IMG/VR virus record: IMGVR_UViG_2617270998_000010
DNA from: a virus
Lineage: Duplodnaviria > Heunggongvirae > Uroviricota > Caudoviricetes
Direction: 5' to 3' (one strand)
DNA: 23,666 nucleotides
The position numbers were made by a program, and so were the translations under genes. Below, in pieces: positions 1,054-11,052 of the stretch (positions are counted from its first letter, which is position 1; every line of letters starts with the position of its first letter). The notes below the pieces were generated by a model. It made no database searches. It had not been told where the DNA came from and saw only the letters and a program-made list of their open reading frames with translations.

Positions 1054-1060
1054 AAAAAAT

Positions 1061-1078
1061 GCCCTCATATCAGAGGGC
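1061..1078 (-). terminator. GC-rich hairpin (GCCCTC-N6-GAGGGC) followed on the minus strand by a T-run, immediately 5' of the int start; terminator-like or translational control element
   Basis: Inverted repeat read directly; on the minus strand the order is stem-loop, ATTTTTT, then the int ATG. The stem contains the int SD (GAGGG). Confidence 0.35.
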
Positions 1079-1144
1079 TAAATTTAACTGTATATAAAAA
1101 CAGTATTCAATGTATTTTTTACTTAGTAGCATACATGTTCATGA

Positions 1145-2100: not shown

Positions 2101-3036
2101 TTATACATTTTTAGTAAAAACTCTTTTACATTTTGCCAAAACGATAATGTCAGTAAGTAAGCATTCAAAACTTGCGTTAGTGCCTACAACTTTAACCATA
2201 CCAACGGGTATGCGAGTCAAATCTTTGATACTTATTTTCCCTTCAATATTCACAAGCCACTTGCCATCAGTAACTTCATTAAATTTTGATTCTACAATAT
2301 ATATTTCCTCATCAATGAATACTGCTAAAGGTTGCAGAAAGGTTCCTTCTAACAACTTAGAGTCAAAAGTCAAGAAGGTTTCTTGAGCAAGAGATCCATC
2401 AATTATTTTATGATATGGGATAGTGATAGTATCGTTTCGAGGCTTTTCAAACATTGCCCCGTTACCAGTGGTTAGCCATGTTAATGAAGCACCGGTTTCC
2501 AGTGAGCATTGAATAATCCAGTCAGCAGGAAAGGTATCTCTCATGTAACGATTGGCTAATGTACTTTTTGATACACCAATATGATCAGCTAAAGCTTGTC
2601 TTGTCTTAAATCCATAAGCCAAAACGATTCGCTCTATTGCTGCTTTTCCACCTTGGTTAATAGTAAAAGAGTTCTCATTTTGGATGTCTTGTTCTCTATT
2701 GAGATGTTGATGCTTGCTGTCACAATTGTTGTGACTTTTTTCTGCATTATTTGTAATGCTTCCCTTCTCGGTATCAGTGCCAAATGCCAACCACTCGACC
2801 GGCACTCCAGTCTCCATGCTACAGATAACAACCCAATCAGCAGGGAAAGTGTCACGGGCATACCTGTTCGCCATTGTACTTTGCGATATACCTAGGTGAT
2901 TACAGAATGCTTGTCGGGAAGAAAAACCATAGGCTTTCAGTATCCGATCTATAACCGATTGCCCTCCGCGATTCTGCATGATTAAGGATTTCTTTTTTTC
3001 GTCCACATGGCGAAATGTGATTTCATGTGTTGACAT
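2101..3036 (-). CDS. cI: Phage 186 CI-type immunity repressor with a tandemly duplicated N-terminal DNA-binding domain
   Basis: 311-aa ORF. Two internal repeats (about res 23-88 and 128-195) each resemble the 186 CI N-terminal HTH domain (...AYGF..RQA...HLGISQST.ANRY.RDTFPADW...ETG....WL.TG). Divergent from the Apl/CII operon, as in 186. Confidence 0.8.
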   Translation of the reverse strand: MSTHEITFRHVDEKKKSLIMQNRGGQSVIDRILKAYGFSSRQAFCNHLGISQSTMANRYARDTFPADWVVICSMETGVPVEWLAFGTDTEKGSITNNAEKSHNNCDSKHQHLNREQDIQNENSFTINQGGKAAIERIVLAYGFKTRQALADHIGVSKSTLANRYMRDTFPADWIIQCSLETGASLTWLTTGNGAMFEKPRNDTITIPYHKIIDGSLAQETFLTFDSKLLEGTFLQPLAVFIDEEIYIVESKFNEVTDGKWLVNIEGKISIKDLTRIPVGMVKVVGTNASFECLLTDIIVLAKCKRVFTKNV

Positions 3037-3124: not shown

Positions 3125-3346
3125 ATGACCCCTAACATTTCAATAACCCTGAATACGCCACATGTCACAATTGAGCGTTATAGCGAACTTACTGGTCTTT
3201 CAATCGACACAATTAACGATATGCTGGCTGACGGTCGCATCCCTCGGCATCGCCTTCGGAAAGACAAGAAAAGAGAAAAGGTAATGATCAACCTTGCTGC
3301 TCTTACCGTTGATGCACTTACTGATTGCAATGTTGTATTCAACTAG
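3125..3346 (+). CDS. apl: Apl/Cox-like excisionase and switch regulator (small HTH protein)
   Basis: 73-aa ORF, first gene of the rightward operon opposite cI and directly upstream of the CII homolog. Assignment rests mainly on position and size. Confidence 0.5.
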
Positions 3347-3378
3347 TTCCATTTTGGGATACATCAGAGGTGTCGACC

Positions 3379-3888
3379 ATGTTTGATTACCAAGTTTCCA
3401 AACATCCACATTTTGATGAAGCCTGTCGTGCATTCGCACTGCGCCACAATCTGGTGCAACTGGCAGAACGTGCAGGCATGAATGTGCAGATTCTGCGGAA
3501 CAAACTGAACCCAGCTCAACCTCATTTATTAACCGCACCAGAAATTTGGTTGCTTACCGATCTGACTGAAGATTCAACGCTGGTAGATGGTTTTCTGGCA
3601 CAGATTCATTGTCTGCCATGTGTTCCGATTAATGAGGTGGCAAAAGAGAAACTACCGCATTACGTCATGAGTGCAACCGCAGAGATCGGGCGTGTTGCTG
3701 CAGGTGCGGTATCTGGCGATGTAAAAACCAGTGCAGGTCGTCGTGATGCTATCAGCAGCATTAACTCTGTAACACGACTGATGGCGCTGGCCGCTGTTTC
3801 ATTGCAGGCCCGTTTACAGGCTAATCCTGCGATGGCGAATGCAGTTGATACCGTGACTGGCCTCGGTGCTTCATTCGGTTTGCTGTGA
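3379..3888 (+). CDS. cII: CII-like transcriptional activator (phage 186 CII family)
   Basis: Start at ATG 3379 (GAGGTG SD), inside ORF-track entry 3325..3888. N-terminus [24 protein letters not shown]...[17 protein letters not shown]...[21 protein letters not shown] matches my recollection of 186 CII closely; 169 aa. Confidence 0.75.
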
Positions 3889-4929: not shown

Positions 4930-5783
4930 GCACCATCCTGAAATGGGCGGGTAATAAAACCGCCATTATGTCCGAACTGAAAAAACACCTTCCTGCTGGC
5001 CCGCGACTGGTTGAACCTTTCGCGGGTTCCTGTGCTGTGATGATGGCGACGGATTACCCCAGCTATCTGGTTGCTGATATTAATCCTGATTTAATCAACC
5101 TCTATAAAAAGATTGCCGCTGATTGCGAATCATTTATATCTCGTGCCAGAGTCTTATTTGAGGAAGCAAACAGGGAGGTGGCTTATTACAACATAAGGCA
5201 GGAGTTTAATTACTCATCTGAAATTACTGATTTCATGAAAGCAGTATATTTCCTGTATCTCAATCGTCACGGTTACCGTGGGTTATGTCGTTATAACAAG
5301 AGCGGACATTTCAACATTCCCTACGGGAATTATAAAAATCCGTATTTCCCTGAAAAAGAAATTCGCGCATTTGCAGAAAAAGCCCAGCGGGCAACGTTTA
5401 TCTGCGCCAGCTTTGATGAAACGCTGGCGATGTTGAAGGCGGGGGATGTGGTGTATTGCGATCCGCCTTATGACGGTACGTTTTCCGGCTATCACACTGA
5501 TGGTTTCACTGAAGATGACCAGTATCACCTGGCATCCGTTCTTGAACATCGATCATCTGAAGGACATCCGGTCATTGTTTCTAACAGTGACACATCCCTG
5601 ATTCGTTCGCTGTATCGCAATTTTACTCACCACTATATCAAGGTAAAACGCAGCATCGGTGTGGCAGCTGGCGAGTGTAAATCAGCAACAGAAATCATCG
5701 CTGTTTCCGGGCCGCGCTGCTGGGTGGGATTTGATCCTTCGCGTGGCGTGGATAGTTCTGCCGTGTACGGAGTGCGTGCATGA
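4926..5783 (+). CDS. dam: DNA adenine methyltransferase (Dam-like, orphan N6-MTase)
   Basis: Start ATG 4926 inside ORF 4866..5783. N-terminus [20 protein letters not shown]...LVEPFAGS (AdoMet motif) and DPPY motif ([10 protein letters not shown]), similar to E. coli Dam. Confidence 0.85.
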
Positions 5784-8194
5784 GCCATGCTGATATGAAC
5801 AACTGCAGCGGCTTTAACGAGGTCGCAGCAGCATTCTCATGGAGCAGCCCGAAAAAGGCCATTAACCCTTATCTGGACCCGGCGGAAGTTGCGCCGGTTT
5901 CTGCGCTTTCAAACCTGATCACTCTGTACGCTGCCGATAACGAGCAGGAACAGCTGCGCCGTGAGGCGCTGAGTGATCAGGTCTGGGAGCGTTATTTCTT
6001 TAATGAATCCCGTGATCCTGTCCAGCGCGAAATCGAGCAGGATAAGCTCATTAGTCGGGCAAAGCTGGCGCATGAGCAGCAGCGTTTTAATCCGGATATG
6101 GTCATTCTGGCGGACGTCAACGCCCAGCCTTCCCATATCAGCAAGCCGCTGATGCAACGTATTGAATACTTCAGCAGCCTGGGCAGGCCAAAGGCTTATT
6201 CCCGCTATTTGCGTGAGACGATTAAGCCATGTCTGGAACGACTGGAGCATGTACGCGAGAGTCAGCTATCCACTTCTTTTCGCTTTATGGCAAGCCATGA
6301 AGGGCTGGACGGCCTGCTGATCCTGCCTGAAATGAGTCAGGATCAGGTGAAGCGCCTGTCTACCCTTGTTGCCGCGCATATGAGCATGTGCCTTGATGCA
6401 GCTTGTGGTGATTTGTATGCCACCGATGACGTTAAGCCAGAAGAAATCCGCAAGACATGGGAAAAGGTGGCAGCGGAAACCCTGCGTCTGGATGTAATCC
6501 CTCCTGCGTTTGAGCAACTCCGTCGGAAAAGAAACCGCCGTAAACCCGTGCCCTATGAACTCATTCCGGGTTCGCTGGCGCGTATGTTGTGCGCCGACTG
6601 GTGGTATCGGAAATTATGGAAGATGCGTTGCGAATGGCGGGAAGAGCAGTTGCGTGCTGTCTGCCTGGTCAGCAAAAAAGCATCTCCCTATGTCAGCTAT
6701 GAAGCCGTGATGCATAAACGTGAGCAGCGCCGTAAGTCGCTGGAGTTTTTCCGTTCTCATGAACTGGTGAACGAAGACGGCGACACGCTGGACATGGAGG
6801 ATGTGGTAAACGCCAGCAGCAGCAACCCGGCGCATCGCCGCAATGAGATGATGGCCTGTGTTAAAGGTCTGGAGCTTATCGCGGAAATGCGCGGTGACTG
6901 CGCCGTTTTCTACACCATCACCTGTCCGTCACGTTTCCATTCCACGCTCAATAACGGCAGACCAAACCCGACCTGGACAAACGCGACGGTAAGACAAAGC
7001 AGCGATTATCTGGTCGGCATGTTTGCTGCATTTCGTAAGGCGATGCACAAAGCCGGGTTGCGCTGGTATGGCGTGCGGGTGGCTGAGCCGCATCATGACG
7101 GCACAGTTCACTGGCACCTGTTGTGTTTCATGCGCAAAAAAGACCGCCGTGCCATCACTGCATTACTGCGTAAGTTTGCCATCCGTGAAGACCGCGAGGA
7201 GCTGGGCAATAACACTGGGCCGCGCTTTAAGTCTGAGTTGATTAACCCGCGCAAAGGAACGCCAACAAGCTACATCGCGAAATACATCAGTAAGAACATT
7301 GACGGGCGTGGTCTGGCTGGCGAGATCAGCAAGGAAACGGGGAAATCCCTGCGTGATAATGCTGAATACGTTAATGCCTGGGCGTCTCTGCATCGTGTTC
7401 AGCAATTCCGCTTCTTTGGCATTCCGGGGCGTCAGGCTTACCGTGAACTGCGATTGCTGGCTGGTCAGGCGGCAAGGCAACAGGGGGACAAAAAAGCAGG
7501 TGCGCCGGTACTGGATAACCCACGCCTTGATGCCATCCTGGCTGCTGCTGATGCTGGTTGTTTTGCCACCTACATCATGAAGCAGGGCGGCGTACTGGTT
7601 CCCCGCAAATATCACCTCATCAGAACCGCTTATGAAATCAACGAAGAGCCGACCGCCTATGGCGATCACGGCATTCGTATTTATGGCATCTGGTCACCTA
7701 TTGCAGAGGGCAAGATCTGCACTCATGCCGTGAAGTGGAAAATGGTTCGTAAGGCCGTTGATGTTCAGGAGGCGGCAGCCGACCAGGGCGCTTGCGCCCC
7801 TTGGACTCGTGGCAATAACTGTCCCCTTGCTGAAAATTTGAACCAACAGGAGAAAGATAAATCAGCTGATGGGGACACCAGAACGGATATTACCCGCATG
7901 GATGACAAGGAGTTGCACGATTTTCTGCACAGTATGAACAAAAAAGAGCGCCGGGAACTGGCTGCAAGGTTACGCCTGGTGAAACCGAAACGGCGTAGAG
8001 ACTACAAACAGCGAATTACAGACCATCAACGACAGCAGCTCGTCTATGAACTGAAGTCCAGAGGATTTGATGGCAGCGAGAAAGAGGTCGATTTACTCCT
8101 TCGCGGTGGCAGTATTCCGTCAGGAGCAGGCCTGCGTATCTTCTATCGGAACCAGCGTCTGAAGGAAGATGATAAGTGGCGGAACCTGTATTAA
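5780..8194 (+). CDS. A: Replication initiation endonuclease gpA (rolling-circle, HUH family)
   Basis: 804-aa ORF; HUH-like motif ([10 protein letters not shown]) and tyrosine motif ([14 protein letters not shown]); position and size match P2 gpA / 186 A; ATGA overlap with dam. Confidence 0.9.
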
Positions 8195-8286
8195 TTACGC
8201 GGGTTAACAATTCGTGCTCTTAATAATACCAGGCATATCAGGCCGATGAACGTAAAAAAACGTTTTACATCAGTAAGATTATTATA

Positions 8287-8306
8287 TACTGTAAATATAA
8301 ACAGTG
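8287..8306. promoter_or_regulatory. LexA operator (SOS box) TACTGTAAATATAAACAGTG upstream of the tum/DinI-like operon
   Basis: CTGT-N8-ACAG with 17/20 identity to the consensus TACTGTATATATATACAGTA, about 40 bp upstream of the 8347 start; TATACT -10-like hexamer overlaps it. Confidence 0.6.
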
Positions 8307-8346
8307 GTTATGTATACAGTATTGCTTTGGTGTTATAGGAGGAAAG

Positions 8347-8535
8347 ATGCAGGACTATTTTTTGGAGTCTTTGAAGCTCCAGCGCATTGATTTTTTTCTT
8401 AAGCTTGTAGCGGCTAGCGAGTGTAGTGATGAAGAGAAGGGGCTGGCTTTGCAGTGGGTTTCTGAATTGACTGATGAACTCATGGCAAAAATCAGAACCC
8501 ACGAATACAACCGCTCAATGGATGTCATCAGTTGA
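8347..8535 (+). CDS. Small SOS-regulated protein, possible Tum-like antirepressor
   Basis: 62-aa ORF with strong AGGAGG SD immediately downstream of the LexA box; equivalent position to 186 tum. Functional assignment is by context. Confidence 0.45.
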   Translation: MQDYFLESLKLQRIDFFLKLVAASECSDEEKGLALQWVSELTDELMAKIRTHEYNRSMDVIS

Positions 8536-8545
8536 GGTGACTTTT

Positions 8546-8779
8546 ATGCGCATTGAAATAATGATCGATAAAGAGCAGAAGATTAGCCAGTCTATCCTGG
8601 ACGCCCTTGAATCCGAGCTTTACCGCAATCTGCGCCCCCTGTATCCCAAAACGGTAATTCGTATCCGCAAAGGTAGCACTAACGGTGTGGAACTGACCGG
8701 ACTGCAACTGGACGAAGAAAGGAAGCAAGTGATGAAAATTATGCAGAAGGTGTGGGAAGACGACAGCTGGCTGCATTAA
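8546..8779 (+). CDS. DinI-family protein
   Basis: Start ATG 8546 (GAGGTG SD) inside ORF 8474..8779. MRIEIMIDK...DALESEL...ERKQVMKIMQKVWEDDSW parallels E. coli DinI (MRIEVTIAK...DALAGEL...KQRISEILQETWESADDW). Confidence 0.7.
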   Translation: MRIEIMIDKEQKISQSILDALESELYRNLRPLYPKTVIRIRKGSTNGVELTGLQLDEERKQVMKIMQKVWEDDSWLH

Positions 8780-9049
8780 GAAACGTTGCTGGCGTCTGAA
8801 CTTGCTTCTGGCGTCAGCAAGGTTGAACAACGAGCTATGCGAGGCGTTAGTGTCAATTTGTTACCTTAACCACTATATATGCCAGGAAATTAACAGTTCT
8901 TAAGAAACCGCTTGCATGATCGAGCGCATTGAACTTAAGTTTAAGTAACGAAATCAACAGATGATATTGTTGTCTAAATTTTAAAGATAATCTGTTGAGG
9001 TTGTAGGCGTCGAAGTGTAGACTTCCGCGCCATGTGAAAAGGGGGAGTT

Positions 9050-9265
9050 ATGTCAAGCATCGCCGCATTTAGCCTGGGTAACCCAGTTGAACGTCTGGCA
9101 AGGGTTCTTAAAGAGAACCAGGACAAACTCAATCTTAGTAAAGATGGTTTTGTGTCCGTAGACTTGTCTAACAAAAGAGCAATGGATGCCATCAAGGCAC
9201 AGATGGATAAGCTTGAAGGCATCAAAACGAGCACTGTAAAAGAGAAAACTAATAGAACCAGATAA
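9050..9265 (+). CDS. Hypothetical small soluble protein (71 aa), first gene of a coupled accessory pair
   Basis: ATG 9050 preceded by AAGGGGGAG; predicted helical and charged; stop overlaps the next start (TAATG at 9263-9267). Confidence 0.5.
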   Translation: MSSIAAFSLGNPVERLARVLKENQDKLNLSKDGFVSVDLSNKRAMDAIKAQMDKLEGIKTSTVKEKTNRTR

Positions 9266-10107
9266 TGGCAACATTACTTTTAGCAGTGATTTTGGTTAGT
9301 GGTTTTATTTATGTAAACCTATCACTTTCAACAAGATACCGATATAAGCGTTCCAACGGCTGGGACGCTTATTTTTTTGTGGCTGCCTGGGGTATCGTTT
9401 TTTTTCTCCTTGGCGGTTTTTTCACCTTTATTTTGAACGTCAGCGGAGGGTTTCGTTTGCTGGCTAATGCCTTGAATCTAACACCTGACAGTTTTAATGG
9501 CATGTTGTCTTCATCGAAAGACAAACTTCAAAGAATAAATGAAATTAAACAGATAGCATGGGTTATGATTTCAATTGTCCTCGCTGCGATTTCAGGTTTT
9601 GGAAATAAGTTACGCACATCACGTGGAGATCGTCGCTGGGATGCCTTAGCTAAAGCTGTGGGTAATAACGCTTTCGAATCATTACTTATGGAAGCGTCCG
9701 CAAGACAGTTTCCGATCATAGCAACTCTGTCGTCTCGCAAAATCTATGTTGGCCTTGTTACTTGTCCGGCGTTAGAAAACGGGCTTTCAGAGCACCTTGA
9801 ACTTCTCCCGATGTTAAGCGGATATCGGGATAAAGATGATCTAACGATTAGTATCACGACTAACTATCACCAACATTATCTTGATAGTGGTGTGATAAGT
9901 GGAATGTCTCGGCTTAATATCGAAGATTTCCGTGTGCTCATACCAAAAGATGAGGTTGAAACAATTTCGTTTTTTGATACTGAGACATATAACAAATTTA
10001 AAGAAAATGAAGCCAGGGATAGAAAGAACTGTCGAAAGATTGGTAGTAAAAGTGCATCTTCGCGCAGCAAGCGTGCAGCAGATGCTGAGTCAAATGATCG
10101 TGCATGA
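9265..10107 (+). CDS. Hypothetical membrane protein (three predicted N-terminal TM helices plus about 160-aa soluble C-terminal domain with basic tail)
   Basis: 280-aa ORF. Hydrophobic segments at res 3-20, 35-57 and 95-112. AT-rich. Sits between the tum module and cos, the old/tin position of P2. No family recognised. Confidence 0.6.
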   Translation: MATLLLAVILVSGFIYVNLSLSTRYRYKRSNGWDAYFFVAAWGIVFFLLGGFFTFILNVSGGFRLLANALNLTPDSFNGMLSSSKDKLQRINEIKQIAWVMISIVLAAISGFGNKLRTSRGDRRWDALAKAVGNNAFESLLMEASARQFPIIATLSSRKIYVGLVTCPALENGLSEHLELLPMLSGYRDKDDLTISITTNYHQHYLDSGVISGMSRLNIEDFRVLIPKDEVETISFFDTETYNKFKENEARDRKNCRKIGSKSASSRSKRAADAESNDRA

Positions 10108-10154
10108 CTATGCTGCATGAGATCGCATGATCGTTTGAGGATCATTTTTGCTAA

Positions 10155-10180
10155 GGCCCGCCAGAACTGGCGGGCTTTTG
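10155..10180 (+). terminator. Rho-independent terminator (GCCCGCC-N6-GGCGGGC followed by TTTT)
   Basis: Perfect 7-bp GC stem and T-tract read directly, 48 bp after the stop of the 9265..10107 gene. Confidence 0.7.
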
Positions 10181-10224
10181 CGTAGATCATGCAACTGCAT
10201 GAAAACCACTACATAAAGCGGGCA

Positions 10225-10243
10225 GGCGTGGCGGGGATACGAG
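10225..10243 (+). other. Probable cos site (19-nt cohesive end) GGCGTGGCGGGGATACGAG
   Basis: Close to the P2/186 cohesive-end sequence as I recall it (GGCG[A/T]GGCGGGGAAAGCA.), with GCGCGCT conserved just downstream; correct orientation relative to the portal gene. Confidence 0.5.
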
Positions 10244-10353
10244 CGCGCGCTCATGGTTGAATTAATGAAATTATGGTGTTAAATAGGCTAGCTTTTTAAG
10301 TCGTGAATATTCAATTTTTCAACTCATTTTTTTCATAGGGAGGAGTAATTGAC

Positions 10354-11052
10354 ATGGTTATGTTAGTGGATGACTGTCCACGATGTGGATCACAAAAAAT
10401 AGCGTTTGATGTTAATGGGCTGAATTGCACTAGGGTTTACAATGCATTGGGCGGGGGTAAAACATACGAGTACGAGGTCTATTGTGTTTGCCGAGAGTGT
10501 CATAAAACGACAATGTTTCTTTGCAGACCTTTAACGAAAAATAAAACTTTAGATGGCTATAATTGGAAAAGTGGAATATTCGGCTTAAAGGAAGTTGCAG
10601 AGGTTGTTAGGCCTATATCACCAGCAGACTTAGCAGTAGAGGAGCCACCAGAGTTCTTACCTGAGCATATCAATAGTGCATATGAGGAAGGGGCGAAATG
10701 TTTGGCTATAGGTTGTTATAATGCAGCAGCAACCATGTTTAGGCTTTGCCTTGATTATGCCACAAAAGGACTTCTTCCTGATGGGGAGCAAGGGCCTGCG
10801 CAAAAAATAAGGAGAAGCCTAGGGTTAAGAATGGAGTGGTTATTTGATAATCATCTACTGCCTGAAGCTTTAAGGGAACTAGCTGAATGCGTTAAAGATG
10901 ACGGAAATGATGGAGCGCATGAAGGTATTTTGGATAAAGCTGCTGCTGAGGATCTTGAAGATTTTACCTATCTTTTTTTAGAACGGCTTTACACTGAACC
11001 TCAACGCCTTATCGAAGCCAAGACAAGGCGTGAACAAAGAAGAAACAAATAA
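10354..11052 (+). CDS. Hypothetical protein: N-terminal Zn-ribbon (CPRCG...CRECH) plus C-terminal DUF4145/HEPN-like domain; accessory gene between cos and Q
   Basis: 232-aa ORF, ATG 10354 with GGGAGGAG SD. Two CxxC pairs in the first 50 residues. C-terminal alpha-helical region ending ...LAECVKDDGNDGAHEG resembles the GN-x-AH signature I associate with DUF4145. AT-rich; convergent with Q (stops 8 bp apart). Confidence 0.6.
   Translation: MVMLVDDCPRCGSQKIAFDVNGLNCTRVYNALGGGKTYEYEVYCVCRECHKTTMFLCRPLTKNKTLDGYNWKSGIFGLKEVAEVVRPISPADLAVEEPPEFLPEHINSAYEEGAKCLAIGCYNAAATMFRLCLDYATKGLLPDGEQGPAQKIRRSLGLRMEWLFDNHLLPEALRELAECVKDDGNDGAHEGILDKAAAEDLEDFTYLFLERLYTEPQRLIEAKTRREQRRNK

Follow-up and report, generated by a model that had tools for sequence, protein, structure and literature searches.

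The stretch of DNA analysed here (23,666 nt, hereafter the window) corresponds to the left part of a P2/186-like prophage (Peduoviridae). Its minus strand carries the integrase gene (1-1053, with the int ATG at 1053), a 314-aa cargo ORF of phrog_2628, a family of unknown function (1145-2089), and the gene for a 186-type CI repressor (2101-3036). The slot between cI and int is filled by other genes in relatives; in 813R9 and KP12 one of these is annotated 'chromosome segregation ATPase'. Then come a cox/apl-like gene (3125-3346), the gene for CII (3325-3888) and replication gene A (5780-8194), which lies directly 5' of the SOS module that is our main subject. The module consists of a putative SOS promoter with LexA operators, a tumA-type gene for a 62-aa protein (8347-8535, plus strand) and a tumB-type gene for a 77-aa DinI-family protein (8546-8779, plus strand). 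Beyond the SOS region lie cargo ORFs, followed by portal, terminase, capsid, lysis and tail genes. The three cargo ORFs between tumB and the portal gene (71, 280 and 232 aa; 9050-11052, plus strand) sit where 186 has orf97, at the cargo hotspot of P2; the DUF4145 protein of 232 aa has a weak match to the defence model PD-T7-4 (E 1e-6).

A first-pass annotation of this DNA had claimed a strong LexA box upstream of the 62-aa ORF, and this was borne out. LexA box 1, TACTGTAAATATAAACAGTG (8287-8306, plus strand), agrees with the 20-nt consensus at 17 of 20 positions; 0.00 matches with three mismatches are expected, and none occurred in 100 shuffles. Scoring the site with a LexA position weight matrix, a check proposed in the same annotation, gave 24 bits; the E. 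coli LexA sites from which the matrix was built, about 24 in number, have a median of 20. The maxima of shuffled windows average 10.8 bits with a 95th percentile of 15.4. We also found a second box that the annotation had passed over: LexA box 2, CAGTGGTTATGTATACAGTA (8302-8321, plus strand), shares 5 nt with box 1 and scores 16 bits, which falls among the scores of known sites and exceeds the 95th percentile of the shuffle maxima. Among 80 IMG/VR loci encoding an identical 62-aa protein, 70 have both boxes; variation in box 2 is mostly central, with its arms CAGTGG and ACAG largely retained, and box 2 is thus no accident. Box 1 is identical in Fels-2, 813R9, DuoHS and most of the 80 loci, about 10 of which have single-base variants. 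More broadly, a LexA box of 23-29 bits lies directly 5' of tum or tumA in all nine Peduoviridae relatives compared, and it is retained over nine phage genera in intergenic DNA that is otherwise unalignable. A single box occupies the tum site in 186, PSP3 and five other Peduoviridae, and likewise in all 80 of the 186-type IMG/VR loci.

The putative SOS promoter (8264-8292, plus strand), the equivalent of 186 p95, has a -35 element TTTACA (8264-8269), a 17-nt spacer and a -10 element TACTGT (8287-8292). It was read by eye and by alignment to the annotated 186 p95, which has the -35 element TTCACA and a -10 TACTGT within its LexA box. On this alignment, box 1 overlaps the -10 hexamer and box 2 covers the start region. 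A generic sigma-70 scan called no promoter at the LexA site of tum, nor at a further LexA site at int described below, the hexamers falling below its thresholds (the -10 TACTGT is weak, matching at three of six positions); both promoters are therefore proposed from the p95 alignment and from reading by eye.

The TumA and TumB proteins

The 62-aa ORF is preceded by an AGGAGG ribosome-binding site (8337-8342). Its product matches phrog_698, an 'unknown function' family in PHROGs, and has no model in Pfam, NCBIfam or PADLOC; BLASTP against 186 Tum gave no match. Profile comparison reached further. When 29 diverse members of the 62-aa family were aligned by hhalign with 20 homologues of the N-terminal half of 186 Tum, residues 2-44 paired with residues 2-44 at a probability of 96.3% (E 2e-9). 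Proteins of Yersinia enterocolitica phages, encoded at the same genome position, match both families, and PSP3 TumA aligns remotely with the 62-aa protein in the same register (hhalign E 0.004). The structure predicted by AlphaFold is a helical hairpin, with helices at residues 2-22 and 28-61 (pLDDT 89). Together these four observations argue that the module is Tum split into its halves, the 62-aa product being homologous to the N-terminal, antirepressor half; we refer to it as TumA. The sequence profile of the family found no PDB relative, and a Foldseek search of BFVD with the predicted hairpin gave no hit better than E 0.3; a hairpin of two helices is not distinctive enough for such a fold search to be informative. 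TumA is identical at 61 of 62 residues to both Fels-2 STM2728 and the DuoHS tum product ECHS_RS04495. The 62-aa antirepressor is labelled 'hypothetical protein' in RefSeq despite a published deletion phenotype, and the value of the present assignment lies in annotation.

In the Yersinia phages, ENT90, ESSI2_ev040 and ESSI-2, a TumA-like gene under a LexA box is not followed by a DinI-like gene. The antirepressor half can thus exist alone, and the DinI half is optional.

The first-pass annotation had placed a DinI-family protein after the 62-aa ORF at the position of 186 tum. This assignment holds, as both genes follow gene A and the 77-aa product, TumB, hits PF06183 with 80.4 bits (gathering threshold 24.2, E 1e-22). 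TumB is 41% identical to residues 71-145, the C-terminal half, of 186 Tum, and it shares 75 of 77 residues with the DinI-like proteins of Fels-2 (STM2726.1) and DuoHS. It also matches the solved E. coli DinI structures 1GHH and 7YWA (E 5e-6). E. coli DinI acts on RecA. TumB falls below the NCBIfam equivalog cut-off for DinI (NF007893; 41.7 bits against 111), and by these sequence scores we class it as DinI-like and not as an orthologue of host DinI.

In 78 of the 80 related loci the layout is a LexA box, the TumA ORF and then a DinI-family ORF of its own, and the gap between the genes is 10 nt in every one of the 78 where tumB was found. A small hairpin picked up by a terminator-like scan (8524-8541, plus strand) extends over the stop codon of tumA and the ribosome-binding site of tumB, and translational coupling of the two genes is possible. 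Past tumB, at the position of the 186 partial terminator t95a, RNA folding gives a GC-rich hairpin with no U-tract (8786-8820, plus strand); with a region z-score of only -1.1, it is a weak candidate for a terminator.

The CI repressor and a LexA box at the integrase gene

The presumed target of TumA is the 311-aa CI (2101-3036, minus strand; the ATG at 2979 is its likely start). The first-pass annotation had called this repressor 186-type, and Pfam agrees: it found PF07022 twice and PF16452, the HTH and C-terminal domains of such a CI, with no S24 peptidase domain (PF00717). Since CI lacks this autocleavage domain, RecA-mediated cleavage is not expected, and we rejected CI cleavage as a route to induction. 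The two HTH domains stand in tandem (residues about 23-88 and 127-196, identical at 37 of 66 positions) ahead of the C-terminal domain. This double-HTH form occurs in 12 of 71 Fels-2-type CIs and one of 68 186-type CIs, as 10 distinct sequences; it is found in Klebsiella phages as well, with 98% identity in Klebsiella phage ST11-OXA245phi3.1.

To set CI variation beside TumA, we used the 80 IMG/VR loci (L014-L093) with 100%-identical TumA, which had been gathered with single-sequence queries and of which 70 have a recognisable CI. Counting that of the window, 43 distinct CIs accompany the identical TumA. Their HTH domains share at least 50% pairwise identity (median 69%), and their C-terminal domains are hypervariable (minimum 23%, median 33%). 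Between these Fels-2-type CIs and the CIs found with 186-type Tum, HTH-domain identity reaches at most 56% (median 38%); the N-terminal signature is 'QKIQLA.HF.IA.SSL.NRYTRG..SYDF' in the 186-type loci versus 'TRQAL.DHL..SKST.A.RY.RD.FPA.W' here. An invariant antirepressor could hardly track a hypervariable C-terminal domain, which makes the conserved HTH domain the likelier contact; this comparison of sequences is suggestive only of a TumA contact surface on the N-terminal HTH domain of CI. The association of Tum type with CI N-terminal type could also reflect linkage, at least in part, because the whole early region is conserved: Cox, CII, A and TumB are 92-100% conserved (medians 97-99%) across the identical-TumA loci. 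Their conservation, set against the hypervariable CI C-terminal domains, places a mosaic boundary inside cI.

A further LexA box absent from the first-pass annotation, AACTGTATATAAAAACAGTA (1086-1105, minus strand), lies upstream of the integrase gene. At 26 bits it is stronger than either tum box (24 and 16 bits). It falls in the 18-nt spacer of a putative int promoter (TTGAAT and TAAATT; region 1054-1144, minus strand), and a conserved GC hairpin (1061-1078) and a T-run stand between it and the int ATG. The box was present in all 51 loci with a 94-100% identical integrase; it is missing from all 17 loci whose integrase is of another type and from all 68 loci of the 186 type. DuoHS carries it too. 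This placement suggests that integrase expression may be SOS-gated. Our literature search found no description of SOS-gated integrase expression.

Probable antirepressor induction and its alternatives

We conclude, with a probability of roughly 90%, that the module is an antirepressor switch, the SOS operon of a P2-like prophage of the Fels-2/186 type. Host LexA would, in a lysogen, sit on two overlapping operators covering the -10 element and the transcription start. After DNA damage, activated RecA would lead LexA to cleave itself, and the promoter would fire. TumA, made first, would bind the 186-type CI, probably at its conserved N-terminal HTH domain; CI so bound would lose its operators, and the lytic promoter would open with CI uncleaved. 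TumB most likely attaches to filaments of RecA and adjusts how strong or how long-lasting the SOS signal is, and would not itself be the inducer.

The functional data come from near-identical modules, the window prophage being known here from its sequence. In the E. coli HS prophage DuoHS (Nat Microbiol 2025, PMC12055606), an in-frame deletion of tum (ECHS_RS04495) abolishes induction by mitomycin C, as does a lexA(Ind-) allele; mitomycin C-induced lysis and virion formation are both lost in the mutants, and an SOS reporter still responds in the tum mutant. The induction experiments proposed in the first-pass annotation are thereby, in effect, already in print for a near-identical module. For Fels-2, the title of Bunny et al. 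2002, as cited by Lemire et al. 2011 (PMC3121763), indicates dependence of induction on LexA and tum. The latter authors also described tum as split by a stop codon in Fels-2 and PSP3, and assigned the antirepressor of PSP3 to the upstream gene. LexA repression, its removal, and the blocking of CI by TumA are thus supported by homology together with the data on DuoHS, PSP3 and 186. The first-pass annotation had predicted induction by an antirepressor and not by CI cleavage, and Tum homology, a CI lacking S24 and the DuoHS genetics all favour that prediction.

Two points in this scheme are put more cautiously. Direct binding of CI by TumA in the Fels-2 subtype is a proposal; to our knowledge, direct Tum-CI binding has been demonstrated only for the fused 186 Tum and not for the Fels-2 type. 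That the CI of the window is sensitive to TumA is assumed, given its unusual double-HTH form and its 47% identity to the DuoHS CI.

A possible objection is that TumB is the inducer and the 62-aa ORF an accessory gene or leader peptide. TumB is the only product of the module with a curated domain, and because the ribosome-binding site of tumB overlaps both the stop codon of tumA and the hairpin there, a tumA deletion could in principle lower TumB. However, the antirepressor activity of PSP3 resides in the upstream gene, and the LexA-controlled TumA-like genes of the Yersinia phages, ENT90 and ESSI-2 stand without a DinI gene; we rejected TumB as inducer. The 186 record describes truncated forms of Tum, including the DinI part Tum95.5, only as modulating SOS induction. 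We regard this objection as very unlikely to hold. Slightly less credible again is the idea that the module acts chiefly on the host as a moron that modulates SOS, with CI inactivated by RecA-stimulated cleavage or another route. It draws on the action of DinI homologues on RecA, E. coli DinI being the case whose structures TumB matches, but it must contend with the missing S24 domain of CI and with the DuoHS tum deletion, which abolishes induction while the SOS reporter responds.

Least probable of all, in our judgement, is that the LexA-like sequences are chance matches in AT-rich DNA and that the operon is constitutive or otherwise controlled. The region is AT-rich, and box 2, with only 16 bits, lies near the 95th percentile of the shuffle maxima. 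Against this stand the 24 bits of box 1 and the failure of 100 shuffles to yield a three-mismatch match, the retention of the box over nine genera, and the largely conserved arms of box 2 with their mostly central variation. In addition, lexA(Ind-) blocks the induction of DuoHS, whose operator differs from that of the window at two central bases of box 2.

The antirepressor switch accounts for the module itself; the side observations are more interesting than this confirmed finding and merit modest follow-up. An invariant TumA beside a hypervariable CI, the double operator, a possibly LexA-gated integrase and the double-HTH CI are leads on the specificity and timing of induction. A speculative proposal, to which we give somewhat less than an even chance, would join several of them: the Fels-2-type TumA may be an immunity-independent 'master key' that inactivates dozens of CIs, the double-HTH form included, by way of the HTH domain, leaving C-terminal domains to diversify freely and cross-inducing co-resident relatives, while a LexA-gated int promoter separately licenses excision. 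If true, this would amount to a two-promoter prophage SOS regulon, which has not been described for P2-like phages.

Comparison with known systems

The operator has a close parallel in the colicin N and pesticin promoters, with which the 35-nt double operator ACTGTAAATATAAACAGTGGTTATGTATACAGTATT aligns almost base for base. Like them it has two LexA boxes overlapping at a common CAGTG junction, and the fuller CAGTGG junction is also common to all. These promoters lie on small, mobilizable plasmids and drive a bacteriocin, whereas the operator of the window drives a phage antirepressor; their LexA box lies downstream of the -10 element, whereas box 1 overlaps it. Colicin double operators bind two LexA dimers cooperatively, with tight repression and delayed induction.

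[quoted passage not shown] 2011, PMC3121763) likewise pair a LexA-controlled DinI homologue with a small antirepressor, the repressor being left uncleaved. They differ in their reversed gene order (dinI first), in belonging to lambdoid phages and in the family of the repressor. Gifsy antirepressors act in trans across prophages, and deletion of the dinI homologues in Gifsy prophages had no induction phenotype (same study).

With 186 the module shares a tum gene that follows gene A, a -10 TACTGT lying within a LexA box, homology in both protein halves and a 186-type CI as target; the 186 record describes Tum as 'inhibits CI DNA binding' and 'repressed by LexA'. In 186, however, Tum is one 146-aa polypeptide behind a single LexA box, and tum is fused in 76 of 80 186-type loci; the window instead has two ORFs, with a stop codon and a gap of 10 nt between them. 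The functional difference between the fused and split forms is small, since an internal GTG start lets 186 produce the DinI part by itself as well (Tum95.5, 'modulates SOS induction'). The first-pass annotation was right that the module is split, unlike that of 186; the novelty it implied does not stand, as PSP3 tumA/tumB and Fels-2 have the same arrangement.

PSP3 also has a split module, in which a LexA box precedes the genes for an antirepressor of 60 aa and a homologue of DinI. Its record annotates tumA as 'similar to 5' end 186 tum; UV induction of prophage' and tumB as 'similar to dinI and 3' end of 186 tum'. TumB is closely similar to that of the window, but TumA is only remotely so, there is a single LexA box, and the genes are 3 nt apart.

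Fels-2 and DuoHS come closest, with gene A, a double LexA operator, a 62-aa ORF, a 10-nt gap and a 77-aa DinI-like ORF in the same order. The DuoHS promoter is 96% identical to that of the window, with both LexA boxes present. What differs is the repressor, which has 189 aa in DuoHS as against the 311-aa double-HTH CI here, and the cargo genes 3' of tumB in both prophages. The LexA operator overlapping a promoter directly 3' of gene A, the split layout, and close identity to a characterised member all place the module with PSP3, Fels-2 and DuoHS: it is the already known Fels-2/PSP3/DuoHS type of the 186 SOS operon. The prophage thereby joins a known class of SOS-inducible, antirepressor-controlled P2-like phages, and a very common family of prophages: about a fifth of complete E. 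coli genomes (1125 of 5426) carry the module, under the annotation 'hypothetical protein | DinI-like family protein'.
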